DNA from: an uncultured Bacteroidales bacterium
Lineage (GTDB): Bacteria > Bacteroidota > Bacteroidia > Bacteroidales > WCHB1-69
Reading direction: 5' to 3'
Length of the DNA stretch: 62,700 nucleotides
Assembly (NCBI GenBank): GCA_905233745.1
Contig: CAJODA010000004.1
Coordinates: 1 to 62,700 of the forward strand
The notes beneath the pieces are model-generated. The model searched no databases. It saw only the letters and a program-made list of their open reading frames with translations, and was not told where the DNA came from. The position numbers and the translations under genes are program-made. Positions 8-54,612 of this stretch are shown in pieces (the stretch's first letter is position 1; every line of letters starts with the position of its first letter).

Positions 8-337
8 TTGTTTGAAGTGTGCCAAATGTCAAAACTCACAACTATGGAAAAAAATGATTATGAGAAGAGCATCTTTGAATACGAGGATGTGCAGGACGCC
101 TTGGAATGCATGCGCCGACACTCACTTCAGGAGGGCTATGAGCAAGGGATACAGCAAGGATTACAACAAGGGATGCAGCAAGGAATACAGCAAGGAATGC
201 AACAAGGTAAAGAAGAAGCGCTCTTCCAAACGGCGCGGAACTTCTTGGATTTGGGTGTTTCTCTCGCCGATGTGGCCAAGGCCACAGGTCTGAGCGAGGA
301 GGAGATACTTGCGCACGAAGGTAATGCTGGCTTTTAG
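8..337 (+). CDS. C-terminal part of an Rpn-family recombination-promoting nuclease / PD-(D/E)XK putative transposase (5' end outside the window)
   Basis: EQGIQQGLQQGMQQGIQQGMQQGKEE repeat followed by the TARNFLDLGVSLADVAKATGLSEEEI helix-turn-helix tail typical of this family. Confidence 0.8.
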   Translation: MFEVCQMSKLTTMEKNDYEKSIFEYEDVQDALECMRRHSLQEGYEQGIQQGLQQGMQQGIQQGMQQGKEEALFQTARNFLDLGVSLADVAKATGLSEEEILAHEGNAGF

Positions 338-340
338 CCA

Positions 341-467
341 TTGGTCATTGGGCTTTGGTTGTTGGGCTTTGGTTGTTGGTCGTTGGTCGTTGGGCTTTGG
401 TCATTGGTCTTTAATATATCCCCCAATTCCCAATTCCCAACTCCCAACTCCCAATTCCTAACTCCCC
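341..467. repeat. Intergenic heptamer tandem repeats, (TTGGNNN)x10 followed by oppositely oriented (TCCCAAY)n
   Basis: ttggtca ttgggct ttggttg ttgggct ttggttg ttggtcg ttggtcg ttgggct ttggtca ttggtct at 341-410; ccccaat/tcccaac/tcccaat units at about 421-467. Confidence 0.85.
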
Positions 468-526
468 TCAAGCACCCCTTTCACCGACTTCACCCATGAC
501 CAATCCCCGACAGCTCATTTTTTTTG

Positions 527-534
527 TATATTTG
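527..534 (+). promoter_or_regulatory. Bacteroidetes primary-sigma -7 box
   Basis: TATATTTG matches TAnnTTTG, 23 nt upstream of ATG 558. Confidence 0.7.
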
Positions 535-557
535 CGGCCTTGTAAAAGTAGCGAATT

Positions 558-39538: not shown

Positions 39539-40468
39539 TTATTTTTTTGTTTCTGCCGCCTTTTCCACTATTTTCGCATAAGCACAATCGCATTCCATGC
39601 TGCTTGTATCCCCATCGATGAACGTAATCTTCTTCTGAATCCTGCTTTTGTCCACACCCGAAGCGACAAAATAATCGGTTATCTTTTTCAGCCTACTTTT
39701 AATCAAGAAAGAAGCAAAGAGGTTTTTAAACCATGATTTCTTACACCAAGTTATCTCAATCAGCAAGCCATAATCCTTATTTTCTCCCAAGACTTTAATG
39801 ATATTTCCTACGTTTTCAAAACTGGGTGCTGACTTTCCAGGTTCAAAAGTAATCTTCACGCTGGTTTCAAGGTTCTGTATTGCAGATTTGGATGCCGTTC
39901 CTCCCGGCTTCTGCTGGACAGTAACCTTTCCCATGCGGGTCCCGTTGTCGCAAATAATGCCAATGCTGCAATCCCTTTTCTCTCGTGAAGGGTTGGGGGC
40001 ACAACGCACAACCAAGTAACTGCCGCCCTCTGAAACCGACAACCAGCTCGTATCCTTAACGGGGACTGATGAAAACCAGTCGCTGCAAGTAATCCTCACG
40101 TCAGAACAAACGCCACCCTCAGCATCAAAAATCAATTCTGAGCCAATGATAAAATCAGACTCCTGTTGACGATGCACCACATAATGCGAATTACCTTTGG
40201 AGCTGTTCGTGTTGCTAGCAGATGATGGGGTATTGAAGGACTTCAGCATATTAGCCGCCGCTTTGCGACAATTCTCCGGATTACTCGGTGTATTGATAAT
40301 GTTCGTCAACACTTTGCGAGCTGCTTCAAGTTGCTTCACATCCTTGGTTTTTCTGTACTTGTCATACATTTTACCTGCCGACTGGATGCGGTCGGCACAA
40401 TCTTGGGCATATACTGTGCAAAGAGGCATACATAACGCCAATAGTAAAAAAACAACAATTCTCTTCAT
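39539..40468 (-). CDS. Secreted protein: helical N-domain + BACON-like domain + degenerate OmpA-C-like domain
   Basis: Signal peptide; FDAEGG...SWLSVS...CAPNPSREKR...VTVQQ (BACON pattern); ITFEPGKS...RLKKITDYFVASGVDKSRI. Confidence 0.7.
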   Translation of the reverse strand: MKRIVVFLLLALCMPLCTVYAQDCADRIQSAGKMYDKYRKTKDVKQLEAARKVLTNIINTPSNPENCRKAAANMLKSFNTPSSASNTNSSKGNSHYVVHRQQESDFIIGSELIFDAEGGVCSDVRITCSDWFSSVPVKDTSWLSVSEGGSYLVVRCAPNPSREKRDCSIGIICDNGTRMGKVTVQQKPGGTASKSAIQNLETSVKITFEPGKSAPSFENVGNIIKVLGENKDYGLLIEITWCKKSWFKNLFASFLIKSRLKKITDYFVASGVDKSRIQKKITFIDGDTSSMECDCAYAKIVEKAAETKK

Positions 40469-40482
40469 ATTCGTATAGTTCT

Positions 40483-41871
40483 TTAATCTTCGGGAATATA
40501 AATGTACTGTATGGAATCGATAAGGGTGTTCACCTCACTATCGTCGTTGATGAGTTTTGCTAATTTCAAATAGTTCAGCACATTCTCTCGCAAACCGTTT
40601 TCCAAAAATGCCCCGGGCAAGTTCTCCTTGGCCTCGGCAAGGCAATAGTCATGTATATTTCCACGTATAATATTTATGCTGTCCGTGTAAACTTCCTGAA
40701 ATTCAGTATTCTGACAGGCTTGGGCACTATCGAACAAGACAAGCGCGTGTTTGAACCTTTCGAGTTGTCCTTGCGTATTGTCCATACCTTGCTGATAGGT
40801 TTGCACGCCACGTTGGTAAAATCCCATGGCCTCATCGTATGCCTGGTGGGATTTTTTGCCCCGTACACTGAACAATACAACAAGCAGGACAACGACAGCG
40901 ACGCACGCACCTATGATTATTCCCTTAACCGGCAGCTTCTTGGACTTCGGGGATTGTGCATGTGACGACGAATTGGCCGGATACTGACCACTTATATGAA
41001 TGGACGAGCTATTGTACGGGCCATTTGATGTGTGTATGGAGCTTGGTGTGTACGAAATCTGAGCCAGGTGTTCAGCGGCAAACCGCTCCAGATCAGTGGC
41101 AAAAGGCCGGTTGCCCGGCACAGGAGCCAGGCACTGCATGATAACCTCTTTCAAATCATCTGAGTAGTTGGCTGGCAGCGGCGGGACTTCCTCTCCTGCA
41201 AGTTGGGCTTCGCCGCCCTTGCCCCCGAACGGCAACCGTCCGGTGAGCATCTCGTAAAGCGATGCGCCCAACGCCCAAATGTCACTGGCCACCAAGGGCA
41301 TCTGATTCCGCTGGAACTTCTCGGGCGGCATATACGGTCTAGTACCCTGAACCGTGGATTTACCCTCAGCCGATTCGCCTAACATGTGCTTCACATTAGA
41401 GCTGATACCGAAATCGGTGATGATGTAGCTGTTGCCGTCTAACAGCACATTGGCGGGCTTGATGTCCTGGTGAATAATCGGCGGCTGGTGCTCATGCATG
41501 CAGGCCAAACCGGAGGAGACGTCATGCAGAAACTGCCAAGCTTTGCGCTCGCTGCAATTTCCAAGCAAGTCCTCCGCCGATCCGGAATTATAGTACGGCA
41601 TCACCAAATACGGGTGACCCACACAAACACCGAAATACGTGTATTTTAACAGATTGGGGTGATTCAAATTATAGACTAAGGCAAACTCCTGACGGAACAT
41701 CTCTATACCCGACTCGTCCAATTGCGCCGTCGGCAAAAACACCTTTAACACCAGCGTCAGCTGCGCGGAAGTGTCCTCTACAAGCCAAACCTCGGAGAAC
41801 CCTCCTTCTCCAAGTTTCTTCAAAAGTTTATATCGACTGTCAAAAAGGTAGCCTTGTTGTAATCTTGACAT
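40483..41871 (-). CDS. Membrane Ser/Thr kinase (non-RD) with periplasmic helical domain
   Basis: GEGGFSEV, VLK, HQDIKPAN, DFG, GTRPYMPPE, DIWALG; TM GIIIGACVAVVVLLVVLF. Confidence 0.93.
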   Translation of the reverse strand: MSRLQQGYLFDSRYKLLKKLGEGGFSEVWLVEDTSAQLTLVLKVFLPTAQLDESGIEMFRQEFALVYNLNHPNLLKYTYFGVCVGHPYLVMPYYNSGSAEDLLGNCSERKAWQFLHDVSSGLACMHEHQPPIIHQDIKPANVLLDGNSYIITDFGISSNVKHMLGESAEGKSTVQGTRPYMPPEKFQRNQMPLVASDIWALGASLYEMLTGRLPFGGKGGEAQLAGEEVPPLPANYSDDLKEVIMQCLAPVPGNRPFATDLERFAAEHLAQISYTPSSIHTSNGPYNSSSIHISGQYPANSSSHAQSPKSKKLPVKGIIIGACVAVVVLLVVLFSVRGKKSHQAYDEAMGFYQRGVQTYQQGMDNTQGQLERFKHALVLFDSAQACQNTEFQEVYTDSINIIRGNIHDYCLAEAKENLPGAFLENGLRENVLNYLKLAKLINDDSEVNTLIDSIQYIYIPED

Positions 41872-41931: not shown

Positions 41932-43341
41932 TTAATTACCGTTTGTTGAAGTATATTTTTTACTATGCTGGTATCCGAATTCCGGATTCAAATCTGAACT
42001 GCCGTCCGGATCATCACCATCTTGTGTTGGTTGGATGGTATGGCCTTTTGTATTGATATTCTTTTTTTTGAGGCCTTGATTTTTATCCTTTGCAGGCGGG
42101 GTCCCATTCTCAGCAATAGGCTGGTTCTCCTCTTTCTTTTCATGCTTGGTCCCATTCTCCGCAACAGGCTGGTTCTCCTCCACATTTTCATGCGTGGTCA
42201 CCTCCTCAACAACAGGCTTGTTCTCCTCACCTTTATTACCATTATCGTCCTTGACATAGAAAATGGAAAAAATGGCAACGAAAATTGCGATGCCTACAAC
42301 ACAGGCGGCAGCAATAAACCAAGGCATCGGATTCTTCTTCTTTTTCAAAGAGGAGTGTCCATAGTATATATCATCATCCGAATACTGATGGCTATTTGAC
42401 GAAGAATAAACCCCCGACATATAATCTTTTGAGTAACTGCCAGAAGAGGTGTAGTCATTAGAAAAGCCTCTTCCGGATGATGTGTTGTTCGTGTCCGGAC
42501 CATTGAAAGGATTTAAATCCCAGTCCGTAGTCGCCTTTTGGGAGAGATGCCGTTCGGCGTACTGTTTCAGTTCTTTGGCAGTAGGGCGTTCATTAGGATT
42601 TTGGGAGAGGCATTGCCGGATGATTCCTTTCAAATCATCGGAGAAAGAGCTCGGCAATATTGGGATGCCCACGCCATCCAACTGGCTTTGGCCCCCTTTC
42701 CCTCCGAAAGGCAACTGGCCTGTAAGCATTTCGTACAGAGACGCTCCCAATGACCAGATGTCGTTTTCCACCGACACAAGAGGTTCTTCCTGGAATTTTT
42801 CAGGTGGCATATAGGCACGAGTCCCCTGTACAAAACGCTTGTTTTTGAAGAGGCTGTACACGCTTGCGCTAATACCGAAGTCGGTGATAATGAAGTTACC
42901 CTCGTCATCCACCAACACATTAGCGGGTTTAATATCCTGGTGAATAATGGCAGGGCGATGTTTGTGCAGACAAGTGAGTCCCGCTGCCACATCGCGAAGA
43001 TACTGCCAGGCTGTCGGTTCGTCGCATCGTCCGATTAAATTCTCCGCTGAACCAGCGCTATAATAGGGCATCACCAAAAAAGGATAGCCTACACAAATAT
43101 CGTAATAACTGTATTTCAGCAGGTTTGTATGGTTGAGGTCAAACACCAGCGAGAACTCTTTGCGAAAAAGTTCCTTTGCCGTATCGTCCAACGTCTCCGA
43201 AGGAAGGAAAATCTTAAGTGCCATGAGATGCTTGGCCGTGGTATCCTCCACCAGCCACACCTCGGCATATCCGCCTTCGCCAATCTTTTTTTTCAGAAGA
43301 TAGCGTTCGTGAAACAGGAATCCTTCTTGTAAGTGTGCCAT
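41932..43341 (-). CDS. Membrane Ser/Thr kinase (non-RD) with low-complexity periplasmic tail
   Basis: GEGGYAEV, ALK, HQDIKPAN, DFG, GTRAYMPPE; TM WFIAAACVVGIAIFVAIFSIFY. Confidence 0.93.
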   Translation of the reverse strand: MAHLQEGFLFHERYLLKKKIGEGGYAEVWLVEDTTAKHLMALKIFLPSETLDDTAKELFRKEFSLVFDLNHTNLLKYSYYDICVGYPFLVMPYYSAGSAENLIGRCDEPTAWQYLRDVAAGLTCLHKHRPAIIHQDIKPANVLVDDEGNFIITDFGISASVYSLFKNKRFVQGTRAYMPPEKFQEEPLVSVENDIWSLGASLYEMLTGQLPFGGKGGQSQLDGVGIPILPSSFSDDLKGIIRQCLSQNPNERPTAKELKQYAERHLSQKATTDWDLNPFNGPDTNNTSSGRGFSNDYTSSGSYSKDYMSGVYSSSNSHQYSDDDIYYGHSSLKKKKNPMPWFIAAACVVGIAIFVAIFSIFYVKDDNGNKGEENKPVVEEVTTHENVEENQPVAENGTKHEKKEENQPIAENGTPPAKDKNQGLKKKNINTKGHTIQPTQDGDDPDGSSDLNPEFGYQHSKKYTSTNGN

Positions 43342-43377: not shown

Positions 43378-44832
43378 TTATTGATTTTGGTTCTTTACAT
43401 CAGAACTATTATTCGTCTGCAGCTCGTTATTGTCCAGGTTCTTACCCCCGGTACGGAGCAAATCGTTGCCTCCTGTATTTGATGGGGTGCCCGGAGCATT
43501 CGTGGATTTGCCTGACCTGAGACTCGGCACATCACCATTCGCAGTTGTTCCTGCGGCAGACGAAGCGTCAGCTCTGCCTGCATTCCCCGATTGTGAGTCC
43601 TTGTCTCTCGTTACGGGCTTGGAAGCCGCAGACGGCACGGTCGTGACCGTCTTGTTCTGATGCTGATATTCGACTTCTGTCAGACTGACATCTTCATTGT
43701 CAGAAGTGCTGTTGGAGGATTCTGCCTGTGTGTCCACATGGGTGTTCCCCGGGGTTTGGGAAACTGCATCTCCATTTTCCACTTTCTTGGGTGAATCAAA
43801 GTATCTGAAGCAGGCATAGCCACCTACAAACACTACCACCACAGCCAGAAGTGCGATGAGCGTGTCTTTCAAGCGATTATTTTGGCGGCGGGACGGGTCG
43901 CTTTTCTCGCTTGACACAGCTGCAACATTATTCTTTTGAGTTATGCTCAAGGGATTGCTCTGCTTCACCGGCCGTTCGGGACCTGAAGCCACCTGGCAAA
44001 GCAGCGTGGTCACATTGTCGTGCCAGTGAGCGGCGGCGGCATCTGTCCATAACTGCTCAATGGCCTCTGGCAGATGGTTTGCGTCCGGAATAGTTTCGAT
44101 GACATTCTGGATTTCATCAGTGCGCAGCACCCCGCATAAGCCATCGCTGCAAAGCAGGAAAATGTCGTCTTTGTAAATGTTAATCGGACCCTCCACATCA
44201 GGATTGGCTTTCTCGGAAGGGTTACCGAGACTCCGAGTGATTATATTGTTGTTGGGATGCTCGAAAGCCTCTTCTTCGCTGAGTTGAAGCACCTCCATCA
44301 CATAGGAGTGGTCACGGGACAACATTTTAAGAAAATGGTCAGGTGAGTAGTAATAAATCCGGCTGTCACCACACCATGCATAGTAGGCGGTATTGTTCTC
44401 CAGCAGCCAAAGCAGAGCCACTGTGGTACCCATCCCCTCCTTCTCGCTATCTCTGGCAGCCTCCTTCTTAATGGCAATGTCTGCGGCGACAATAGCCTTA
44501 CGAATAAACTTCTTGATGGCGGCATCAGAAGACATATCCAGATGCTTCATGCCCTCTTCGCTGAATTGATCCTGAAGCGTGGTCACGGCAATCTGGGAGG
44601 CAACCTCCCCGGCGTTCATTCCGCCCATACCGTCAGCCACCACTAACAGACATCCCTTCCCCTGCAGGGGAATCATTTTGGAGAAGTCCCTTACGGTCAC
44701 ATCCCCAAAATGATTCACGGAGGGGTTGGCAACACCCACTTCAGACACCACGAGACAATTGTCCTCATTTGCGCCGTCGCGGGCAGCCCTGTCGCATTGT
44801 ACAGCAATACTCAGTATTGTTTCCTCACTCAT
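43378..44832 (-). CDS. Membrane-anchored PP2C/PPM Ser/Thr phosphatase
   Basis: NED, VADGMGG, GMGTT, GDSR, LCSDGL, DNVT; TM LIALLAVVVVFVGGYACF. Confidence 0.93.
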   Translation of the reverse strand: MSEETILSIAVQCDRAARDGANEDNCLVVSEVGVANPSVNHFGDVTVRDFSKMIPLQGKGCLLVVADGMGGMNAGEVASQIAVTTLQDQFSEEGMKHLDMSSDAAIKKFIRKAIVAADIAIKKEAARDSEKEGMGTTVALLWLLENNTAYYAWCGDSRIYYYSPDHFLKMLSRDHSYVMEVLQLSEEEAFEHPNNNIITRSLGNPSEKANPDVEGPINIYKDDIFLLCSDGLCGVLRTDEIQNVIETIPDANHLPEAIEQLWTDAAAAHWHDNVTTLLCQVASGPERPVKQSNPLSITQKNNVAAVSSEKSDPSRRQNNRLKDTLIALLAVVVVFVGGYACFRYFDSPKKVENGDAVSQTPGNTHVDTQAESSNSTSDNEDVSLTEVEYQHQNKTVTTVPSAASKPVTRDKDSQSGNAGRADASSAAGTTANGDVPSLRSGKSTNAPGTPSNTGGNDLLRTGGKNLDNNELQTNNSSDVKNQNQ

Positions 44833-44844
44833 TCTTCAGTGTTA

Positions 44845-45822
44845 CTATTTGTTTTTTCCTTTCTTTTTGCCTTTATTGTTATCCTTTTCAGGAATTATGG
44901 AATCGTCATCCTGACCCTGATTTTTCTTGTCAGAAGCAGACTTTCCTGACGCTGTTGGCTGTGACAGCATCTTCACCAACTCCCACTTGCGGGAGCCGTA
45001 AGGATCCATACGCGCCATGCCCATCAGGTTGAAGCGGATACAGCCGGGCTCATCCACATTCATGTTCAGGAAAGCACCACCGATAACGCTGGCAGGATTA
45101 GCGGGCTGGCGCAAATTGAAGATGGTGTTCTCATTGAACGTGATTGTTGTGGGAATAATCGTACAATGCGTCTCTCCCATATCATCCAAAGAGAACCAAA
45201 CCATATAGCCAGACTTCATGCCATCACCTGTCTCAACACCCAGACCAAGATTATGGAAAGTGGTGTCCAAAACGTTGTAAAAACCTGAAGCGAGCATCTC
45301 GCTAACGGTCTTGTTCATGTCAAACGGACGAAATTCTTTGTCTTTCAACATTTTGTATTGGACATTATCCACCGAAACCATATCTTCGCCGTATTTGTTG
45401 GCATCGAATTTCGGATCCGACTTCCAAGGTTTCAGGAATCGGTTGTCCACTCCGTAGCCATAAGCCAGGAGTGGAACAACACTATATACGGTACCGAAAA
45501 AGTCATTGCCAGAGACATTGCTGCCACTCTCATTGTCACGCACGTTATAGTCCGATTTCACCACAAGGAAAGCGTTTTCCACGGCGCGTTCAATAATGGC
45601 ATTCGCATCAGAAGAGACTCTGGAGGAACTCGGTGCCTGAGGATTGAGGGAAGGTATCTCCTTGTTCTCAGGTGTCACGGCAGACTCTTCGCCGGCGTTT
45701 GTCTTTTCCGCCTGCTCTTTATTGGTTCCTTTCTTGTTCCCATGCAAACTGGGAATATTATTCTGCGCATTGCCAAGCACAACAGCGGCAATAAGCAGGA
45801 ATATTAAGCTAATTTTTTTCAT
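44845..45822 (-). CDS. Secreted protein, probable catalytically dead trypsin-fold paralogue
   Basis: Signal peptide; VDNRFLKPW and SVIGGAFL...FNLMGM align by eye to TARHVVEPW and GNSGGPVF...YLVGL of the upstream gene. Confidence 0.6.
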   Translation of the reverse strand: MKKISLIFLLIAAVVLGNAQNNIPSLHGNKKGTNKEQAEKTNAGEESAVTPENKEIPSLNPQAPSSSRVSSDANAIIERAVENAFLVVKSDYNVRDNESGSNVSGNDFFGTVYSVVPLLAYGYGVDNRFLKPWKSDPKFDANKYGEDMVSVDNVQYKMLKDKEFRPFDMNKTVSEMLASGFYNVLDTTFHNLGLGVETGDGMKSGYMVWFSLDDMGETHCTIIPTTITFNENTIFNLRQPANPASVIGGAFLNMNVDEPGCIRFNLMGMARMDPYGSRKWELVKMLSQPTASGKSASDKKNQGQDDDSIIPEKDNNKGKKKGKNK

Positions 45823-45836
45823 AATCGTTTGAAATT

Positions 45837-47354
45837 TTAGTGGGTGATAGCGGAAATCGGAACGATACTGCCGGAATTATTACCATGACGGGTGGAAACG
45901 AGACCCACCAGATAGTACTTGCCATTTTGCTTGTAGAACACAGGGCCACCGCTATTGCCGTTTTCATAGTTGGCACCGGTCACTGGAATCACACCGTGAA
46001 GCAGACCCGTGTTGGAGGTGGTGGCATATGTGTATTGCGGACGGATGTCGTTCTTGTCGCCGCCTCTTCCGTATGGGAATCCTAACACTTCCAGACGGGC
46101 ACCGGCAGGAAGGTTCTTCGACAACTGGGCATCGGCCACAATGTTGCTGTGTACATTAACCTTGCGATAAGCATAGTCGCTGCCATTGGCAAGATAAATG
46201 GAAAGGCCGTCGCCAAGTTCAACCTTCTTGTCATTCTTACGGCTCACATTGAAGTCGGTGTAGTGGAAGACGCGTTGGTCACCAGTTTTGCTTTCAGCCA
46301 CGATGGTGGCATCGATGATGGCGCCCAGCTGTGACAAGACGTTGGCCACGGTGAAGGTGTTTCCTTCGTCAATGTTGGCCCAGTAAGCCCAAGGTTCCAC
46401 CACGTGACGGGCGGTGATGAAATAGCCGTCGCTGGTGATAAAACCAGTGGCTAACGGGGTCTCGTCACCCACAAAATAGTACTCCCACGGATCGTCGCCG
46501 ATGATATCGTAGGCATCAGAGCTCTTGGGTGCAGAGATGGTGAACTTTGTCATCTTCACGAAATACACATAGGGTTCGAAAGATGTAAGATTGCCAGACA
46601 ATGGAACATCCGCCGGTCTGCTGGGTGTTGCCGGAACAATATTACTGCTTGAAGTACGACTACCACTTTTTCTAAAGCCATCGATAATCTTGCGAAGGCC
46701 AGAAATTTCTTCTTGTGCAGCCTTTGTCTGTTCAACTGCATTCTTTGATTGTTCAATTGCGGCAGCAGCTTCCCCTTTGGCTAATCTCGTCTCCTTGTTG
46801 GCCATTAGCAAGCCTGCGACGAGTCCTGCAATGGCAAGACAGAAGATGATGCATATGGTAACCAAGGCGGTCTTGTAGGGTCTCAGAGCCTGCTGGCGGA
46901 AGAGATTGAGACGGGCGGTCATGCCGATGGACTTCACAAAAGACTGTTCGCCTTGCGGGACGATGAAGCCGAGGCGCGGGCCGTTGTAGGAGAGTTGGAT
47001 TTCATCTCCGTTTTGCAGCATCTGCTCACCCATCACACGCTGACCGTTCACGAACGTGTCATTAGTGCTGCTGCGATGGATAAGTTTCCATTGGTCGCCT
47101 TCGCGGACAATGACGGCGTGCTCACGGCTCACCGTGCCGAACTGCTCGTCAATGAGCACCTGGCACTTCTTGTCGCGCCCGATGAACACCTCATCAATAA
47201 TGAGCTTCTGCTGCTCACCACGGCGGTGTGTTGCCGAGTCATCCTTGTGTTCAATGATAAAATAGCGTCTGCCGTCTCCGCCGAATACGGAGCGCATGCC
47301 GGAATTGATGGTTCCGGAAACCGTTCTTTTGAATTGAGTAGTTTGATTTGCCAT
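45837..47354 (-). CDS. FHA-TM-coiled coil-trypsin-like serine protease
   Basis: FHA IGR...VSREHA...NDTFVNG; TM; TARH, DYA, GNSGGP catalytic triad. Confidence 0.92.
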   Translation of the reverse strand: MANQTTQFKRTVSGTINSGMRSVFGGDGRRYFIIEHKDDSATHRRGEQQKLIIDEVFIGRDKKCQVLIDEQFGTVSREHAVIVREGDQWKLIHRSSTNDTFVNGQRVMGEQMLQNGDEIQLSYNGPRLGFIVPQGEQSFVKSIGMTARLNLFRQQALRPYKTALVTICIIFCLAIAGLVAGLLMANKETRLAKGEAAAAIEQSKNAVEQTKAAQEEISGLRKIIDGFRKSGSRTSSSNIVPATPSRPADVPLSGNLTSFEPYVYFVKMTKFTISAPKSSDAYDIIGDDPWEYYFVGDETPLATGFITSDGYFITARHVVEPWAYWANIDEGNTFTVANVLSQLGAIIDATIVAESKTGDQRVFHYTDFNVSRKNDKKVELGDGLSIYLANGSDYAYRKVNVHSNIVADAQLSKNLPAGARLEVLGFPYGRGGDKNDIRPQYTYATTSNTGLLHGVIPVTGANYENGNSGGPVFYKQNGKYYLVGLVSTRHGNNSGSIVPISAITH

Positions 47355-47403: not shown

Positions 47404-48693
47404 TCAAATGCCCTCCACACGTAGTTTCACCTCACCGATAGAGATAATGTCGCCAGCTTTCAGCTCCACACCTTCAAGTCCATGAAGTTCCCTCGAATTG
47501 ACATACGTGCCGTTGAGCGAGTTCTCCCACTTTCCGTCATAGAACTGGCCATCGCGCAAGTACCAGCTATTCTGCACAGGGTTGAACTCCAGCGTGAAGT
47601 GCCTGCGAGAAATGTAGCTTGTATTAAAGTCCTTTATACTAATGTTGTTGCTGATATATTTGCTGTAGCGGCCGCCTGTTACCAAATAAATGTCATCTTG
47701 CAAGAAATCGTTGAGATTATAACGCTTGCCATGTTCCTCGCCCTGCATCACTTTCAGCACCAAACCCTTGCTGATGTTGGTACTGAAATCCAGTACCGGT
47801 GTCATCACACGCGGTTGCTCCTGTTGGTTAGGAATATGCGCCAGCACTTCATCCACACTTTGATAGCGTTTCTCATAATTGGGTTCAAGACACCCGTTCA
47901 GAACAGTCTCCCAATGGCTCAGATGTGGTTTCATGCGCAACTTGTCACGATTCCAGCGCCCGCTCACCGCCTTGTCGATATATGGCTCCAAGTCCGCCTC
48001 ACTCTCCAACCTTCCATAAGGCAATTCGTGGAAAAGTATTTCATACAGAACCACGCCAAATGAAAAGATGTCAGTAGTGGGAAGCACCGTGGCTTTTGCC
48101 TTTTTAGGACGTGTCTGCTCGGGTGCCATGTAGGCAAACGTGCCGAAGATATCCACTTTATTGAAAAGTTTTTTCCAAAACGGGATATCGGCGATGGCAC
48201 CGGTAGTGCCGAAATCAGACAGGGCCACCTTGCCGTCGCTCTTCACCAGAATATTTTCAGGCTTGAGATCGCGGTGGACCTTGCCACTGCGGTGCAAAGC
48301 CTGCAAACCGTATAAGATTTGGCAGGCAATACGTTCATAATTAGGTGAGACATTCTCCACAAGGTTATATAGGTTACCTTTTTGACAGAATTCCATCACA
48401 ATATATGGATTACCCATCACAATATCGTACTCGATAGAATGGACCAAATAGGGGCTGTCAATGCGGCCAGTCTCAAATTCCATCTTGAAACGCTGGACCA
48501 ATTCGGCCCTTTCCTCGCCGGTGCGTTTCCATAATGGCAAAATCTTCAGCGCGTATGGCTGATTACGGGCATCCAACACTTTGAACACCATCCCAAAGCT
48601 TCCCTCTCCCAACGTCTTCTCCACGCGGTAGCGTCCGTTGACGTATTCACCAGCCTTGAAATCGCATTTTTCAGCAAAGTAGTTTTCAGCCAT
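47404..48693 (-). CDS. Soluble RD-type Ser/Thr kinase with C-terminal FHA domain
   Basis: GEGSFG, ALK, HRDLKPEN, DFG, GTFAYMAPE; FHA GGR...ISRRH...SLNGTYVN. Confidence 0.93.
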   Translation of the reverse strand: MAENYFAEKCDFKAGEYVNGRYRVEKTLGEGSFGMVFKVLDARNQPYALKILPLWKRTGEERAELVQRFKMEFETGRIDSPYLVHSIEYDIVMGNPYIVMEFCQKGNLYNLVENVSPNYERIACQILYGLQALHRSGKVHRDLKPENILVKSDGKVALSDFGTTGAIADIPFWKKLFNKVDIFGTFAYMAPEQTRPKKAKATVLPTTDIFSFGVVLYEILFHELPYGRLESEADLEPYIDKAVSGRWNRDKLRMKPHLSHWETVLNGCLEPNYEKRYQSVDEVLAHIPNQQEQPRVMTPVLDFSTNISKGLVLKVMQGEEHGKRYNLNDFLQDDIYLVTGGRYSKYISNNISIKDFNTSYISRRHFTLEFNPVQNSWYLRDGQFYDGKWENSLNGTYVNSRELHGLEGVELKAGDIISIGEVKLRVEGI

Positions 48694-48704: not shown

Positions 48705-49556
48705 TTATTTAGTTGAAAATTCGAAATCACGATCACCCATAGACACAATATCACCGTCATGAAGCTCTGTCCGGCGGGTCACCCGGATATAGGTGCTCTT
48801 GAAGGCGCTGCGGTCCTCAATGTACCATTTGCCGTCCTCAAAAGTGAGCAATGCCTGCTGCTGCGAGGTGATAGTGAAATTGTCAGGCTCAGTGTTCTGG
48901 CGGTTCAGGACAACTTCAGCAGAGGAATACTCCTGTTTCACCATTCTCGCTGCGGGCTCATTTTCGTGCGGTACAGGCTGAAGGGAGCAATGTGGAGGCA
49001 GTTCAGGCTCGGTCATCTTTGCCCTTGGATTCTGCATCTGGTGGATATTGACCGTTTTCTTGTTAACAGCTTCTTCTTGATTCGTGGCGGGCACAAAACG
49101 CTCTGTCTTCTTGGCGGCAGAGATATTCTGATCGGGTGCAACATAACGTTCCGTCTTTTTGGGAACTGTCGCATCTCTGTCAGGTGCCACGTATGGTTGG
49201 GTGACCTTAGGGCCAACCGGTTGTTGCTGGAGATTCGGATTGCTGATAACAACAGTCTTCTTTCCCCCTCCATCTTGCATTTGAGGAGGTGTACTGTTCC
49301 CTATCGGACGATGGCATTTCGGACATACCTGCATTCCCGGAAGAATGGGATAGCCGCAGTCGTGCACAGTCACACCGCCACCCTTGGGTTCCTCCGGACG
49401 GGTTTCCATTCGCATTGTTTTTTTGTCGTCATCCACGACAGGAGCTGCAGATGATACCGCAGCAGCCGCTTTACGGTTCTCTTTTAAAGGTGAGCCGCAC
49501 CGGCTACAAAATGTAGCATCATCGGCATTGTTCAGTCCACAAAATTTACATATCAT
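48705..49556 (-). CDS. Zinc-ribbon + Thr-motif linker + FHA protein
   Basis: CKFC/CSRC and HDC/CPKC Zn pairs; FHA LNR...ITSQQQA...STYI...GDIVSMG. Confidence 0.88.
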   Translation of the reverse strand: MICKFCGLNNADDATFCSRCGSPLKENRKAAAAVSSAAPVVDDDKKTMRMETRPEEPKGGGVTVHDCGYPILPGMQVCPKCHRPIGNSTPPQMQDGGGKKTVVISNPNLQQQPVGPKVTQPYVAPDRDATVPKKTERYVAPDQNISAAKKTERFVPATNQEEAVNKKTVNIHQMQNPRAKMTEPELPPHCSLQPVPHENEPAARMVKQEYSSAEVVLNRQNTEPDNFTITSQQQALLTFEDGKWYIEDRSAFKSTYIRVTRRTELHDGDIVSMGDRDFEFSTK

Positions 49557-49562
49557 AATCGT

Positions 49563-50138
49563 TTATTTTACTATCAAGTTATTAGTCAAATACCTATTCG
49601 TACCCATCCGCTCATTTGCAGTGACAACTTCCATCTGACTGTTGTCACCGTACAAGTAACAGGTACGCCATGTTTTTTCCGCCTCAACAGCGTAATAGAA
49701 AGGCAGGAACAACGTTCTCCCATAATCACGATAATACTGTTCATCGCCGAACCAGTAGACGGTAATGGGTTTCAAAGGCTGGAATTTTTGATTCTCAGAA
49801 GTGTACAGAGGTTGAAAAGTGCGACATAGCATATCCTTCTCGGAAGCTGCGAGCACCGAACAACGGTCAATGTAATCAAGTAGTCCCTTAGCCTCATCCC
49901 ACGCCGACCTGTCGGTGATTTTTACCGCATCGAACACCTTGCCATCCTTGTTCACACCACCGCGGATATAAATCACAAAATCGCTTACCTTATTATTATT
50001 AAGGGCATCGTCTATCACATTTGCTATATAGGTGCCATCTGTGTGGTCGCCAAGATTGATACAGAAGAAATAGAAGTCTTGCGCCCGCGACACAAAACCC
50101 GCCAACAATACCACTATAAATATCATTGCCTTTCGCAT
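49563..50138 (-). CDS. Secreted hypothetical alpha/beta protein
   Basis: MRKAMIFIVVLLAGFVSRA-Q signal peptide; tight operon spacing. Confidence 0.75.
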   Translation of the reverse strand: MRKAMIFIVVLLAGFVSRAQDFYFFCINLGDHTDGTYIANVIDDALNNNKVSDFVIYIRGGVNKDGKVFDAVKITDRSAWDEAKGLLDYIDRCSVLAASEKDMLCRTFQPLYTSENQKFQPLKPITVYWFGDEQYYRDYGRTLFLPFYYAVEAEKTWRTCYLYGDNSQMEVVTANERMGTNRYLTNNLIVK

Positions 50139-50151
50139 ATTCCTTCTGTAT

Positions 50152-51717
50152 TTAAAAATTGTACTTTACACCGAGTTGAAAATCCAGAAACTGGGTTGGC
50201 TGAGTCCAAAGGTTCCGGCAAACGGAGTTGAAATCAGCCGAATTAGCCGAAAGACGGAAACCACCATGTTGTTCAGCCGGTTTTGTGAGAATACGATAAC
50301 GGTACCCGGCTGAAAAATCCAGTGACCATCGTTTATCGGAAGTGATGAAATATTGGGCACCTATTCTTGCAAGAGCATCAACATGCCAACGATGAGTCCT
50401 CATTACATTTTCAGAAAGGTTAACCACATCAAACGTGCCGAAATCATAATATCCGTTCTGATCAATCAGCACGTTGTAATATTCTTCGCCATACAGACCT
50501 GCATAATGCCCGTTGAACGATGCTTTTGCAGGAGAGATAAAAGCCATTGCACCACGAAGGCCCACAGCCGCGAAAACCGACAGACTGGGAATCACATAAT
50601 AGTCATAACGGACAATGGCAGGAATTGCAAACGAAATACTGCGGCCTGCCTCATCATATCCCAACAATTGCGTCTTTCGCGTATATCTGGCGCCATCCGT
50701 GTCGATTGTATCATATTGGTCCACATAGGTATCCGCTGAAAAATGTTGAACGCCGATATCAAGTACCAGACCTGTCTCAAAGGAAACCCTATGCCGGCCT
50801 TTCGCAAAAATCTGGCGCAAGTAGGTTGCACCGACTCGGAAAGTATGGCTTCTGTATGCAATATTTTCGAAAGTGTAGTCAGCGTCCGACGGAACCTCGA
50901 TATTTCCCATGCTTAAAGGCATGACATATCCGAATTCCAAACCAACGGCGTTTTTCACTGTGTTGACGGAAATCGTATGATAGCGAAGCGTGTCGTTATG
51001 AGGGGTGAACTCATATTGGAATGTGGCACAGTTCTGTTTGGAAAGTTGTTTGTACATCTCTGCCGACAACGGCTGGACACGACTGTCCAAATAGGTTTCA
51101 CCACCTCCTACTTCCTTCACTTTCAAAGTTTTAGGAATATATAGTGTATGGGTATTATTCTCATAGTTGGCCAAAATATGCGGTTTCATCCGGTTGTCGG
51201 CACGGTTACACTCTATACGGACAATCTTCGCCGCCTTACGAACAAAACTGTAATCTATGACTAATACCAGACGGCTGACCACAGGGGTGGTATCTGTAAT
51301 AGTATTATATTCTTTGGTCAGCACCGCAGTATAGATTCCCCCAATGTCCGAAAGACTCTGACGGTCAATTTGCACGTCCTTGATGTCGAACTGTCGGAAT
51401 GTTCCCTGCTGCTGCTCATAGAAAGCACAATAGTTGGACAGTGTGACCGAATCTTTTCGGTTCGAATTGTTATACCAATCAATGTGGTCCATATAGACCG
51501 TAGTGTTCTGACTCTCGAAAAGGTTGCGAAAAGCGCCTATTTTCTGAGCATAACGTTCCGTAAGGTTCGCATTATCCACATAGGCATCTACCAATTCAAA
51601 CACCTTTTGATTGGCATACATCACGTCACGAACCGTTTGAGCCATACAGCCGGATGTAGCAAATAACCCACACACCAAAATAGATAATATGACATTTTTC
51701 ATATTCATTGCTGGCAT
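50152..51717 (-). CDS. Outer-membrane protein: N-terminal soluble domain + C-terminal beta-barrel
   Basis: Signal peptide; amphipathic strands; FQLGVKYNF C-terminal beta-signal. Confidence 0.8.
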   Translation of the reverse strand: MPAMNMKNVILSILVCGLFATSGCMAQTVRDVMYANQKVFELVDAYVDNANLTERYAQKIGAFRNLFESQNTTVYMDHIDWYNNSNRKDSVTLSNYCAFYEQQQGTFRQFDIKDVQIDRQSLSDIGGIYTAVLTKEYNTITDTTPVVSRLVLVIDYSFVRKAAKIVRIECNRADNRMKPHILANYENNTHTLYIPKTLKVKEVGGGETYLDSRVQPLSAEMYKQLSKQNCATFQYEFTPHNDTLRYHTISVNTVKNAVGLEFGYVMPLSMGNIEVPSDADYTFENIAYRSHTFRVGATYLRQIFAKGRHRVSFETGLVLDIGVQHFSADTYVDQYDTIDTDGARYTRKTQLLGYDEAGRSISFAIPAIVRYDYYVIPSLSVFAAVGLRGAMAFISPAKASFNGHYAGLYGEEYYNVLIDQNGYYDFGTFDVVNLSENVMRTHRWHVDALARIGAQYFITSDKRWSLDFSAGYRYRILTKPAEQHGGFRLSANSADFNSVCRNLWTQPTQFLDFQLGVKYNF

Positions 51718-51782: not shown

Positions 51783-52373
51783 TTATACCAAATTAGAGAA
51801 GCCCATGAAGGCCATGGCCAGAATGCCGGCGGTGATGAGGGCGATTGGCACACCCTTCATGCCTTTGGGAATGTCAACCAGCTCCATCTGTTCGCGGAGA
51901 CCGGCGAAAATCACAATGGCCAACGTGAAACCGATGGCGATGGCCACTGAATAGAAAGTGCTGTCGAGAATAGAGAACCCGTGGGCAGCGATCAACGGTT
52001 GCTCCGTCACCTTGATGGCAATACCCAACACAGCACAGTTCGTGGTAATGAGGGGCAAATAGACACCAAGAGCCCTATAGAGTGAGGGGCTCATCTTCTT
52101 CAGCATGATTTCCACCATCTGGACCAAAGAGGCGATCACCAAGATAAACACGATGGTCTGCAGGAAGGTGATGTTGAGCGGTACCAGAACATACTTCTGC
52201 AATGAAGAGGTCACCAAAGTGGCCAATGCCATGACAAAGGTGACAGCAGCACCCATGCCAAGAGCGGTGTTCACCTTACTGGAGACGCCCAAAAAGGGAC
52301 ATATACCGAGGAACTGCACCAAAATGATATTGTTGACCAATACAGCTCCGATTATCATCAATATGTATTCCAT
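51783..52373 (-). CDS. rnfA: Rnf/Rsx electron transport complex subunit A
   Basis: QFLGICPFLGVS, LPLITTNCAVLG. Confidence 0.95.
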   Translation of the reverse strand: MEYILMIIGAVLVNNIILVQFLGICPFLGVSSKVNTALGMGAAVTFVMALATLVTSSLQKYVLVPLNITFLQTIVFILVIASLVQMVEIMLKKMSPSLYRALGVYLPLITTNCAVLGIAIKVTEQPLIAAHGFSILDSTFYSVAIAIGFTLAIVIFAGLREQMELVDIPKGMKGVPIALITAGILAMAFMGFSNLV

Positions 52374-52401
52374 AATTTCAGTTTTTTACAGATTGGTTTT
52401 T

Positions 52402-52429
52402 GTTGAGACGCACGGCCGCGCGTCTTTAC
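52402..52429. repeat. Degenerate REP-like palindrome between rnfE and rnfA
   Basis: GTTGAGACGCACGGCCGCGCGTCTTTAC, same 28-nt layout as 23961-23988. Confidence 0.65.
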
Positions 52430-52433
52430 CGTA

Positions 52434-53057
52434 TTATTTTGCGGCGCACATTTTGTCCTTGCGTTTATCCTCCACACGGTTGATGATATGGCGCATCAGG
52501 GCCATGATGAAGCCGAGCACGAGGAATGCACCGGGCGCGAGGACGAAAATCAGGATATTGTACTGTGACGGGATAAACTGCCAGCCCATGAAGGAGCCTG
52601 CACCGAGAATTTCGCGCACAGCGGCCACCAAAATCAAGGAGATGGTGAAACCGATACCCATTCCAAGACCATCGAGGATAGAGTCAAACACGCTGTTCTT
52701 GTTGGCGAAGGCCTCGGCACGTCCGAGCACGATACAGTTGACCACAATCAGCGGGATGAAGACGCCAAGGCTCTCGGAGAGCGCGGGCAGAAAACCCTTG
52801 ATGATCAAATCAACCATACTCACGAAGGTGGCGATAATAACGATATAGCACGGAATACGCACCTTATCGGGAATCACATTCTTCAGCAGGGAGATGATAA
52901 TATTGGACATAAGGAGCACGAAGGTCGTGGCGGCACCCATACCGATGGCGTTGTTCACGGAGGTGGTGACAGCCAGCGTGGGGCACATGCCGAGCACCAG
53001 GATAAGGCTCGGGTTCTCCTTGAAAAAACCTTTGGTTAAAATTTTCACTTTACTCAT
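52434..53057 (-). CDS. rnfE: Rnf/Rsx subunit E
   Basis: LGMCPTLAVT, PLIVVNCIVLGRAEAFA. Confidence 0.95.
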   Translation of the reverse strand: MSKVKILTKGFFKENPSLILVLGMCPTLAVTTSVNNAIGMGAATTFVLLMSNIIISLLKNVIPDKVRIPCYIVIIATFVSMVDLIIKGFLPALSESLGVFIPLIVVNCIVLGRAEAFANKNSVFDSILDGLGMGIGFTISLILVAAVREILGAGSFMGWQFIPSQYNILIFVLAPGAFLVLGFIMALMRHIINRVEDKRKDKMCAAK

Positions 53058-53637
53058 GATAATCCTCCTTTACTTTCATAAAAACATTATAAGCCCGTTG
53101 CACGGCATCGCAGTAAGCGCGGGAAGAGATGGTGGCTGCTGTGATGGCATCCACATCGCCGCCGTCTTTAGTCACCTGCAGCTTGTATTCTGCCGGATCG
53201 TTGTTGTTGAACTGTTTGGCGAAATCGCTCTTGTTCTTGTTGATCTTGTCACCGAGGCCAGGGGTTTCGGAAGCCTTAATAACTTCCGTATTCAGGATAA
53301 CGCCCTCGTTGTCAAAGCCCACCATCAGATCGAAGCGACCGGAGAAGGCCTTCATGGTGAAGGTTTCCACACCGGCGCCAAAGAGTTTGCCGTTCTTGTC
53401 GACAGCCTTGTGGACGAGAATGTCATCGCCTTCGAAGTTAACCACGGTATCCACGATTGTGCCGTCGAATCCGGGCAGCACATCACTGAGCGCTTTCTCT
53501 TTCTTCTGTTTCTGTGACAGTTCAATAGGTCCTTTGGTCAGTGCATACACGCCAGTCAGAGCCAGGCCGGCCACCAAGGCGATGGAAGTCAGCACGACCA
53601 CCAATATAATCAATGAAGGTTCTTTTTTCTGTGCCAT
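53050..53637 (-). CDS. rnfG: Rnf/Rsx subunit G
   Basis: ETPGLG, DAITAATISS FMN-binding motif. Confidence 0.93.
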   Translation of the reverse strand: MAQKKEPSLIILVVVLTSIALVAGLALTGVYALTKGPIELSQKQKKEKALSDVLPGFDGTIVDTVVNFEGDDILVHKAVDKNGKLFGAGVETFTMKAFSGRFDLMVGFDNEGVILNTEVIKASETPGLGDKINKNKSDFAKQFNNNDPAEYKLQVTKDGGDVDAITAATISSRAYCDAVQRAYNVFMKVKEDYHE

Positions 53638-53655
53638 AGTTTTCGGTTTTAAGGA

Positions 53656-54612
53656 TTATTTGGCGAAAGTTCTCGGTTTGCACATCCTGTTAATCAGGGG
53701 TACGAAGGCGTTCATGATCAGAATCGAGAAGGAGACACCTTCGGGGTAGGCGCCGAACATACGGATGATGATGGTGAAGAGACCGCAGCCGCAGCCGAAC
53801 ACAAGCATACCCAACGGGGTCACCGGGGAGGTCACCATATCCGTAGCCATGAAGCATGCGCCAAGGACAAGTCCGCCGGCGAGCACATGGAAGAAGGGGT
53901 TGGCATATTGGTTAGGATCGATGAGCCAGAAGATTCCGGCGAACACGAACACGGTAAGGATGAACGAAACGGGGATATGCCAGCTGATCACTTTGCGGAT
54001 CATCAGGAAGATGGCGCCGATAATCAGGGCGATGGCGGACACTTCGCCAAAGCTGCCGCCCATCTGGCCCAGCAACATGTTCATATAGGTGGGCATTTCC
54101 ACATTGGCGCCCTCCTTGAGGATACCCAGCGGGGTAGGACCCGTGACGGCATCCGCAAAGCCCCATACCGGAACAGGCACTGGCCAGGAGGTCATGGCCA
54201 CCGGGAAGGCGATGAGCAGGAACACGCGGGCCACCAGTGCCGGGTTGAACGGGTTATGCCCCAGACCGCCGAACGGCATCTTGGCAATGCCAATGGCCAC
54301 AATGGCACCCACCACCATCATCCAGATGGGCAGGTTGGAGGGAACGTTGAAGGCAAGCAGCACACCCGTCACCACCGCGGAGCCGTCGCTGACAGTAGGC
54401 TTCACCTTCATGAGGAAACGCTGGATGAGGTACTCAAACAGCACACAGCATCCAACGGACACCAAAGTTAGAATTATCACCGGCAGCCCGAAATAGAAGA
54501 CGGACACCACAAAAGCCGGTATCAACGCAATCACCACCGACCACATGATCTTCTGTACGGAGTCGTCACTGTGGACGTGCGGTGAACCGGAAACATTTAA
54601 CAATCTGTTCAT
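53656..54612 (-). CDS. rnfD: Rnf/Rsx subunit D
   Basis: SPH, FGGLGHNPFNPAL, DAVTGPTPL, MATDMVTSP, YPEGVSF. Confidence 0.95.
   Translation of the reverse strand: MNRLLNVSGSPHVHSDDSVQKIMWSVVIALIPAFVVSVFYFGLPVIILTLVSVGCCVLFEYLIQRFLMKVKPTVSDGSAVVTGVLLAFNVPSNLPIWMMVVGAIVAIGIAKMPFGGLGHNPFNPALVARVFLLIAFPVAMTSWPVPVPVWGFADAVTGPTPLGILKEGANVEMPTYMNMLLGQMGGSFGEVSAIALIIGAIFLMIRKVISWHIPVSFILTVFVFAGIFWLIDPNQYANPFFHVLAGGLVLGACFMATDMVTSPVTPLGMLVFGCGCGLFTIIIRMFGAYPEGVSFSILIMNAFVPLINRMCKPRTFAK

Follow-up and report, generated by a model that had tools for sequence, protein, structure and literature searches.

How does a bacterial protein that would read phosphothreonine on the cytoplasmic side of the inner membrane and cut proteins on the periplasmic side pass a signal between its two ends, and in which direction? 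This question is raised by one gene in a 62,700-nucleotide stretch of DNA from an uncultured Bacteroidales bacterium (contig CAJODA010000004.1, positions 1 to 62,700; the whole stretch is called the window here). The gene lies at 45837-47354 on the minus strand, like all other features of the window described below. It encodes a protein of 505 amino acids (aa) with an ATG start, in which an FHA domain, a single transmembrane (TM) helix, a linker and an HtrA-like protease domain follow one another, as established by translation of the open reading frame (ORF), Pfam and full-length homologues. A first-pass annotation of the sequence had proposed that the protease is clustered or activated by cytoplasmic phosphorylation and cleaves periplasmic targets. 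Our analysis supports the architecture and topology behind that proposal and leads us to prefer, tentatively, a mechanism of this inside-out kind, in which the protease would be the output of a conserved phospho-signalling module.

Domain layout and homologues

The gene is not a chance ORF, because homologues of its product are numerous: a scoring of 8000 candidates gave at least 1681 at E ≤ 1e-3, and an exhaustive representative search of 1.84 billion proteins gave 291 matching clusters at E ≤ 1e-30. Full-length homologues shared 40-88% identity with the 505-aa protein. A further collection scan, limited by its search pattern (the juxtamembrane stretch described below), gave 295 relatives. 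Two alignments were used for conservation analysis, one of 121 proteins (the 505-aa protein and 120 homologues) and one of 80 (the same protein and 79 homologues from species-representative loci). The AlphaFold2 model, which was computed from a 44-sequence alignment and had a mean predicted local distance difference test (pLDDT) score of 80.2, consisted of an FHA sandwich at residues 31-131, a short helix at 145-156, a long helix at 161-227 that contains the TM segment, a disordered stretch at 227-253 and a well-modelled protease domain at 257-505.

The FHA domain and the juxtamembrane segment

The FHA domain covers residues 31-131 (46962-47264), is predicted to be cytoplasmic, and was identified by both structure match and Pfam (PF00498, residues 57-121, E 9.1e-17, 61.7 bits against a cut-off of 20.7). 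Contact with phosphothreonine in FHA domains was judged by the Arg of the GR loop, the Ser-Arg of the SRxH loop and the Asn of the TNxT loop, and all of these are present. R60, S76, R77, H79 and N98 were identical in 121/121 proteins and line up with the GR..SRRH..N motifs of the GarA FHA domain, which makes this a predicted phosphothreonine-binding domain with intact contact residues. The structural matches were of the same kind, with the EmbR FHA domain (2fez) at Z 16.4, root-mean-square deviation (rmsd) 2.6 and 102 aligned residues, and a chain of a GarA complex (6i2r_B) at Z 16.2, rmsd 1.3 and 94 aligned residues.

The FHA domain is preceded by a Ser/Thr-rich segment of 30 residues (47265-47354), which was poorly modelled (pLDDT 33-61) and partly conserved, with Gly14 and Gly19 invariant in the family alignment. 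It resembles the phospho-switch tails of GarA/OdhI-type FHA proteins, and we speculate that it could serve as a phospho-acceptor or as a ligand of the FHA domain. On the other side of the domain lies a juxtamembrane motif, defined from the family alignment (residues 132-163, 46866-46961), which includes the short helix 145-156 and ends in FRQQALRPY just before the membrane. In the 80-sequence alignment 13 of its 32 columns were at least 95% identical, and in the family alignment I143, R148, F152, Q155, A156, L157, P159 and Y160 were invariant.

Membrane topology and linker

The single TM helix was placed at residues 164-186 (46797-46865) by hydropathy and charge bias. The sole strong hydrophobic segment of the protein was found at residues 167-185 (Kyte-Doolittle 2.82), in agreement with the one TM segment of the first-pass annotation, and the FHA domain is N-terminal and without a signal peptide, as had also been stated: no N-terminal hydrophobic segment was found in any of the 80 sequences (0/80). 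In the same alignment, Lys and Arg residues within 15 residues of the TM segment were more frequent before it (3.89 on average) than after it (2.26), and the net charge was greater on the N side in 79/80 sequences. Stand-alone paralogues of the protease domain (two at loci L038 and L045, plus P0190) bear Sec-type signal peptides, so the protease domain works outside the cytoplasm. Phosphothreonine, the ligand of FHA domains, is made only where ATP and kinases are. From the charge bias, the absence of a signal peptide, the Sec-exported paralogues and the cytoplasmic location of phosphothreonine signalling together, an N-in/C-out topology is strongly supported, by which the 505-aa protein would be a bitopic inner-membrane protein with its FHA domain in the cytoplasm and its protease in the periplasm, on opposite sides of the membrane as originally claimed.

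The periplasmic linker (residues 187-256, 46587-46796) was delimited from the AlphaFold2 model and from conservation, and it is the least conserved segment of the family, with a length of 32-86 residues. A coiled coil had been proposed at this place, a claim that is only partly supported. One continuous helix (161-227, pLDDT about 59-83) runs from the TM segment into the linker in the model, and is followed by a Ser/Thr/Pro-rich disordered stretch (227-253, pLDDT below 50). Occupancy of heptad positions a and d was 0.75 compared with 0.54 in shuffled sequences when Ala was counted (1.45% of shuffles reached 0.75), but there was no enrichment over shuffles for I/L/M/V/F alone.

The protease domain and its catalytic triad

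The protease domain (residues 257-505, 45840-46586) was assigned to the S1 chymotrypsin fold by Pfam, Foldseek and VIA-align. Pfam scored Trypsin_2 at residues 302-484 with 35.4 bits (cut-off 27.6) and Trypsin at residues 293-495 with 32.0 bits (cut-off 20.6). All three motifs named before were found and the triad codons were verified by translation: His317 in TARH (46404-46406), Asp393 in DYAY (46176-46178, located by the family alignment and the motif itself) and Ser468 in GNSGG (45951-45953). TARH and GNSGGP line up with TAAH and GDSGGP of protein C and chymotrypsin, and by alignment the order His, Asp, Ser is that of an S1 (PA-clan) serine peptidase. The triad H-D-S was kept in 109/121 proteins and in 77/79 fused homologues from species-representative loci, which argues that catalysis is under selection.

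The best Foldseek matches of the domain were HtrA1, DegS, DegP and AlgW, with HtrA3 and DegQ also in the top rows, and all 994 re-aligned matches had Z of at least 8. After VIA-align the values were Z 17.5, rmsd 3.6 and 180 aligned residues for HtrA1 (3tjn_B), 17.4, 2.8 and 175 for DegQ (4ynn_A), 16.9, 3.8 and 181 for DegS without PDZ (2qf3_C), 16.9, 2.6 and 171 for the S1C domain of RsgI9 (7sjy_A), 16.4, 2.5 and 160 for MarP (3k6z_A), and 16.2, 2.4 and 167 for AlgW (7co2_A). Rows within 1 Z unit count as tied, and RsgI9 and MarP fall inside the tie range of the HtrA proteins. Sequence similarity to solved HtrA proteins was marginal (profile E about 1e-4 to 1e-3). The PDZ domain that marks the HtrA family (S1C) was missing: no PDZ match was found by Pfam at E ≤ 0.01 in the 505-aa protein, and the chain stops 37 residues past the catalytic Ser. 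Since there is no C-terminal PDZ domain, the protein is HtrA-like and not a canonical HtrA, and the earlier statement that it is not gated by PDZ as in HtrA/DegS holds.

A conserved kinase, phosphatase and protease module

The protease gene belongs to an array of ten same-strand genes with gaps of 6-60 nt, in the order barrel-like protein, 191-aa exported protein, Zn-ribbon-FHA protein, kinase-FHA protein, FHA-TM-protease, 325-aa exported protein (a predicted pseudoprotease, see below), PP2C-TM protein, two receptor kinases and BACON protein. The shared strand and the short gaps suggest that the ten genes are co-transcribed. A scan for sigma-70 promoters and terminators in the array gave numbers close to those of shuffled sequences (promoters 20 and 18.0, terminators 17 and 13.8, respectively). 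In the RNA libraries of one study, contigs from four bovine-gut metatranscriptome runs covered parts of the gene and of the operon at 95% identity or more, including 46034-46391, 46271-46892 and 46976-47310 of the protease gene; such contigs give neither strand nor level, and with DNA carry-over possible they are weak evidence of expression.

Conservation of the module was scored in 80 species-representative loci by hmmscan at E ≤ 1e-5. The kinase-FHA protein was found in 78 of the 80 loci, the Zn-ribbon-FHA protein in 76, the PP2C protein in 75 and a receptor kinase in 66, followed by the 325-aa protein (52), the BACON protein (34), the barrel-like protein (9) and the 191-aa protein (8). The same gene order was seen in 18 loci obtained by genome searches, several of which are contigs among the 80, so that the two sets are not independent. 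The protease gene thus belongs to the core of a module that is conserved in Bacteroidales and consists of the Zn-ribbon-FHA protein, the kinase-FHA protein, the FHA-TM-protease, the PP2C-TM protein and one or more receptor kinases.

The upstream neighbour of the protease gene (47404-48693) encodes a Hanks-type Ser/Thr kinase of 429 aa with a C-terminal FHA domain (Pkinase E 1.8e-39, FHA E 9.7e-13), in which hydropathy gave no TM segment and which is predicted to be cytoplasmic. Further upstream (48705-49556) is the cytoplasmic 283-aa protein with two zinc ribbons, a long disordered linker and a C-terminal FHA domain (Pfam Zn_Ribbon_1, DZR and FHA). On the other side of the protease gene are the PP2C phosphatase of 484 aa (43378-44832, PP2C E 3.1e-15), with one TM segment (324-342) and a low-complexity periplasmic tail, and two receptor-type Ser/Thr kinases with one TM segment each. 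The first kinase (469 aa, 41932-43341, TM 342-360, Pkinase E 3.6e-45) has a disordered periplasmic tail, and the second (462 aa, 40483-41871, TM 318-336, Pkinase E 3.5e-42) has a periplasmic domain of about 125 aa. The phosphatase scored 174 bits with the Stp1/IreP model, for which the cut-off is 230. All PP2C orthologues (75/75) had one TM segment and a tail with a median length of 132 aa, and 74 of 90 kinases had one TM segment, with a median tail of 139 aa. The first-pass annotation had named the tails of the phosphatase and a kinase as possible substrates of the protease; they are candidates from that source, and no result of ours ties them to the protease.

The linker of the Zn-ribbon-FHA protein contains five [KR][KR]TxxPhi repeats, compared with 0.04 ± 0.21 in shuffled sequences, which we regard as candidate phospho-acceptor or FHA-docking sites. 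As a family-wide docking array the repeats were rejected, since three or more copies were present in 7 of 74 orthologues and none in 67. Other Thr motifs, one or two per protein, are conserved in distant orthologues, and the pattern T-[VIL]-[NW]-[PSI]-[WYH], which was defined post hoc, occurs in 43 of the 74.

No sigma factor, anti-sigma factor, RseP-like or DNA-binding domain was found among the 15 ORFs of the locus that were scanned by Pfam. The locus therefore lacks the anti-sigma substrate and the site-2 protease or extracytoplasmic function (ECF) sigma factor that go with a DegS-type site-1 protease.

Direction of signalling

The conserved core contains writers (the kinases), an eraser (PP2C), readers (three FHA domains) and one further enzyme, the protease. 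Because the protease is the only core enzyme besides the kinases and the phosphatase, and because there is no transcriptional output among the 15 ORFs, we read it as the output of the module. We prefer control from the inside, at a probability of roughly 0.4, because the kinases have periplasmic parts of their own for sensing and because the triad appears to be under selection. By this mechanism the receptor kinases would sense the envelope and write phosphothreonine on cytoplasmic partners, which could be the kinases themselves or the Zn-ribbon-FHA protein with its Thr-rich linker. Docking of the FHA domain on these marks would gather protease protomers at the membrane. HtrA-type proteases act as oligomers, so the gathering of protomers would switch on or localise periplasmic proteolysis, and PP2C would reset the activity. 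An exported pseudoprotease, or the pairing of a live with a dead protease (both described below), would probably modulate it. The most specific form of this proposal, in which a multi-site cytoplasmic scaffold, marked with phosphothreonine by the receptor kinases, recruits the FHA domain, forces the ectodomains into active oligomers and so triggers periplasmic proteolysis, tuned by the pseudoprotease or by live/dead pairing, is possible and should be taken as tentative.

The conservation profile raises a different explanation, in which information passes into the cell, as it does in DegS and in the RsgI anti-sigma factors. The ectodomain would bind or cleave a periplasmic ligand (an unfolded envelope protein, a peptide or a polysaccharide) and change its oligomeric state, and the clustered FHA platform would then recruit, stimulate or sequester autophosphorylated kinases. 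In the 80-sequence alignment the mean frequency of the top residue was 0.83 for the FHA domain, 0.77 for the juxtamembrane segment, 0.67 for residues 1-30, 0.51 for the protease domain, 0.38 for the TM segment and 0.22 for the linker. The cytoplasmic parts are therefore far better conserved than the protease, a gradient that receptors with fast-evolving sensor ectodomains typically show as well. Catalytically dead members with a perfect FHA domain fit such a sensor as well, and there is a precedent in RsgI9, whose protease-like ectodomain matched ours at Z 16.9 (rmsd 2.6, 171 aligned residues; PMC12203970 for the precedent). However, the triad that 77/79 and 109/121 proteins keep would be superfluous in a sensor that only binds, the module already has receptor kinases with periplasmic parts, and an FHA domain, being a reader without catalytic output, would be an odd transmitter. 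We therefore consider sensing from the outside somewhat unlikely.

A protein in a congeneric genome (G211) bears on the same choice. Here an ectodomain 51% identical to that of the 505-aa protein, with His changed to Gln, is joined through a TM segment to a cytoplasmic TIR_2 domain. The gene is split over two contig ends (L140 15530-16702 into L141 226-510, plus strand), is preceded by a TerB-domain gene and is followed by a second TIR_2 gene (L141 538-1041, plus strand, E 2.4e-17), with no kinase or PP2C nearby. With no kinase module and an adjoining TIR gene, the ectodomain is more plausibly an input in this variant, in line with sensing from the outside, but this is a single case in one genome. 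It is possibly a different, conflict-type use of the same ectodomain.

The inside-out mechanism thus has several points against it. Besides the conservation gradient and the TIR variant, 11 of 120 homologues, and 2 of the 79 from species-representative loci, lack the catalytic His and/or Ser and keep all the FHA phosphate-binding residues. At locus L075 the triad is R-N-S and no live paralogue was found within the 17-kb locus. The pseudoprotease partner is absent from 27/79 loci, and the multi-copy KKT motif that would offer docking sites in the window occurs only in close relatives. Three elements of the mechanism are also inferred: which way control runs, the switch by oligomerisation, and the substrates.

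Exported paralogues and a predicted pseudoprotease

Two of the stand-alone protease paralogues with signal peptides sit between the fused gene and the pseudoprotease gene. At one locus (L038 11457-12512, plus strand, on the same contig as L059) the anchored copy is dead (N-D-A) and the exported paralogue directly downstream has H-D-S, which also speaks for selection on catalysis. At the other (L045 8203-9141, plus strand, on the same contig as L055) both copies are intact. In the genome of the window itself, a more distant paralogue of the protease domain was seen on another contig (L002, contig C68, 1471-2310, minus strand), which is 31% identical, has the His and Ser motifs and runs off the contig end. 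The gene downstream of it (265-1464, minus strand) encodes 399 aa, with a kinase-like but degenerate N-terminus followed by one TM segment and a periplasmic domain, and the two genes may represent a second, partial module.

The gene directly 3' of the protease gene (44845-45822) encodes an exported protein of 325 aa, for which no match was found in Pfam, NCBIfam or PADLOC. Its signal peptide ends in an invariant Gln and is followed by a low-complexity linker, a core at about residues 70-293 and a Lys-rich tail. The core was modelled by AlphaFold2 with pLDDT mostly about 80-95. When it was compared with 48,161 chains by VIA-align, 94 chains had Z of at least 8, the best being 9ect_B (Z 12.0, rmsd 3.6, 173 aligned residues), and all 50 rows listed were chymotrypsin-fold proteases or protease-like proteins by title. 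The rows listed include the S1C domain of RsgI9, MamO, haptoglobin, HGF and protein Z, which we take to be non-catalytic. No His, Asp or Ser was invariant in an 18-sequence alignment of the family. Because of the chymotrypsin-fold core and the lack of an invariant His, Asp or Ser, the 325-aa protein is most likely, as far as the model shows, an exported chymotrypsin-fold pseudoprotease.

Sequence homology between the 325-aa protein and the protease domain was looked for and not found (nothing by BLASTP, hhalign probability 0.5), so the protein is tied to the protease family by its predicted fold alone. Its profile weakly matched the stand-alone protease paralogues (hmmsearch E 3.6e-7 and 3.1e-6), for which the signal peptides may be the cause. 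Two runs of complex prediction for protease residues 255-505 with pseudoprotease residues 68-295 each scored 0.00 (mark 0.32), a result that is uninformative on binding either way. The gene was found directly 3' of the protease gene in 52/79 loci. In 22 of the 27 loci without it (L063-L128), a protein of about 200-270 aa that combines an FHA domain with a multi-pass membrane C-terminus rich in Trp and Gly is encoded upstream of the fused gene. This small FHA-membrane protein and the pseudoprotease are nearly mutually exclusive, with both in 4 loci and neither in 5.

Accessory genes of the operon

Three further exported proteins are encoded at the two ends of the array. The first (521 aa, 50152-51717) has a signal-peptide-like N-terminus, no Pfam match and a C-terminal half that resembles an outer-membrane beta-barrel, since residues 227-521 gave TM-scores of 0.74-0.78 to OMP_b-brl_2-type clusters among the Atlas structure rows. 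The second (191 aa, 49563-50138) also has a signal-peptide-like N-terminus and no Pfam match; a vWA fold scored 0.88, below the bar of 0.9, and was not adopted. At the tail of the array is a BACON-domain protein (309 aa, 39539-40468, E 2e-5), whose 24.9 bits are just below the cut-off of 25. The 521-aa and 191-aa proteins are restricted to close relatives (9 and 8 of the 80 loci).

These genes would fit a role of the FHA-TM-protease as a scaffold of a trans-envelope complex, in which it would mainly nucleate a membrane assembly. The FHA domain would bind phosphorylated partners inside, the ectodomain would bind the pseudoprotease and outer-membrane or periplasmic partners outside, and proteolysis would serve only for maturation. 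Such a protein would resemble the FHA-bearing inner-membrane components YscD, FhaB/FipA and GltG, the juxtamembrane motif, being invariant, points to a constant contact between proteins, and dead-triad members exist. The best NCBIfam matches of the FHA domain were in the same direction (FhaB/FipA, TagH, OdhI and GltG), every one under its cut-off: the FhaB/FipA equivalog model (NF049868, FhaB_Rv0019c) gave E 8.6e-12 and 45.4 bits against 125, and the TagH/Fha model of the type VI secretion system (T6SS; TIGR03354) gave 33.8 bits against 120.25, with no T6SS families in the operon. On the other side, the barrel-like and 191-aa proteins are not core members, no secretion, motility or cell-wall synthesis genes were found in the operon by the Pfam scan, and the triad is conserved in most members. 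A scaffold role is in our judgement improbable.

Distribution and flanking genes

The 505-aa protein belongs to gut and rumen Bacteroidales. By record title its carriers include Bacteroides, Prevotella/Segatella/Leyella, Paludibacteraceae, Muribaculaceae, Alistipes, Odoribacter and Lentimicrobiaceae, with a few obviously mislabelled bins. The spread is patchy. At E ≤ 1e-20 matches were found in 10 of 54 congeneric species and in 16 of 151 other genomes of the family, four full-length matches were found in 200 other genomes across the order, and none at E ≤ 1e-15 in 400 other genomes across the phylum.

Rnf/Nqr-type genes (RnfA/E-like, FMN-binding RnfG-like and RnfD; 51783-54612) lie on the same strand 65 nt upstream of the operon head. 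Synteny of the flanks was low, with Rnf genes upstream in 2 fetched loci only and the downstream 473-aa gene in 1.

A patchy distribution with flanking genes that are not conserved would also suit an accessory island for anti-phage defence or inter-bacterial conflict, with the protease as its abortive or effector arm. The kinases match the PADLOC models mad6, PD-T4-6 and MkoA, the protease weakly matches RT-Protease (E 5e-8), and the TIR-fused relative exists. But the PADLOC matches are to generic kinase and trypsin domains, and the locus has no methylase, nuclease or reverse transcriptase partner. The protease is predicted to be in the periplasm, away from phage replication, and no mobile-element genes were found in the operon by Pfam. 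For these reasons we regard a defence island as very improbable.

Comparison with known systems

The module probably links protein phosphorylation to envelope proteolysis. HtrA-type proteases hold a central place in the quality control of the envelope and in its stress signalling, and to our knowledge every member whose regulation is well understood is controlled from the periplasm through PDZ domains. If the inside-out mechanism is true, a cytoplasmic phosphothreonine reader in place of PDZ gating would represent another principle for controlling proteolysis outside the cytoplasm: a bacterial transmembrane route from the inside that controls an HtrA-type enzyme by a phospho-reader and not by PDZ-peptide sensing. 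The Hanks-type kinases of Bacteroidales, whose roles are essentially unknown as far as we know, would then gain a function as well. The carriers by title include abundant gut genera (Bacteroides, Segatella/Prevotella, Alistipes, Muribaculaceae), so the mechanism could be tested in commensals that are amenable to genetics. From the live/dead pairing and the TIR-fused relative, the ectodomain seems to be a reusable transmembrane signalling part.

Full-text literature searches, which did not extend to supplementary files, turned up no functional work on an FHA-TM-protease or on the Bacteroidales cluster. A 2008 survey of prokaryotic serine proteases lists the architecture FHA-FHA-Tryp once, for NP_811686.1 of Bacteroides thetaiotaomicron, and gives the architecture only (PMC2605481); compared by that catalogued architecture alone, it is the same kind of FHA-protease fusion as ours. 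The bare FHA-trypsin architecture had therefore already been catalogued, and the 325-aa predicted pseudoprotease, the pairing of a dead anchored with a live secreted copy and the TIR-TM variant are new here.

Among characterised systems, the type VI secretion pathway of PpkA, PppA and Fha1-TagH puts an envelope machine under post-translational control by a receptor Hanks kinase, a PP2C phosphatase and an FHA reader (PMC5995506). The module of the window shares these three elements, but there are no T6SS genes at the operon and the reader is fused to an effector enzyme. RsgI9 of Clostridium thermocellum is described as a bitopic protein with a cytoplasmic anti-sigma domain, one TM segment and a cellulose-binding, protease-like S1C sensor ectodomain (PMC12203970). 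Our protein has the same plan of cytoplasmic interaction domain, one TM segment and extracytoplasmic S1C-fold domain; it differs in having FHA instead of the anti-sigma domain, an intact triad, and kinases and a phosphatase as partners. MarP (Rv3671c) of mycobacteria is likewise a membrane-tethered chymotrypsin-fold protease without PDZ, but its anchor is polytopic and it is not known to have any linkage to FHA or kinases.

The actinobacterial cluster fhaA-fhaB(fipA)-pstP-rodA-pbpA-pknA-pknB resembles the operon in gene content, with two FHA proteins (one of them membrane-anchored), a PP2C phosphatase with a TM segment and an extracellular tail, and two receptor Hanks kinases. RodA and PbpA are absent from our operon, in which the membrane FHA protein has a protease ectodomain and a kinase-FHA fusion is added, often together with the pseudoprotease. 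Like DegS and AlgW, the 505-aa protein has its membrane anchor on the N-terminal side of a periplasmic chymotrypsin-fold protease with intact H-D-S. Unlike them, it has no PDZ domain and so no gating by the C-termini of outer-membrane proteins, its operon has no anti-sigma, sigma-E or RseP genes, and a folded cytoplasmic FHA domain replaces the bare anchor.

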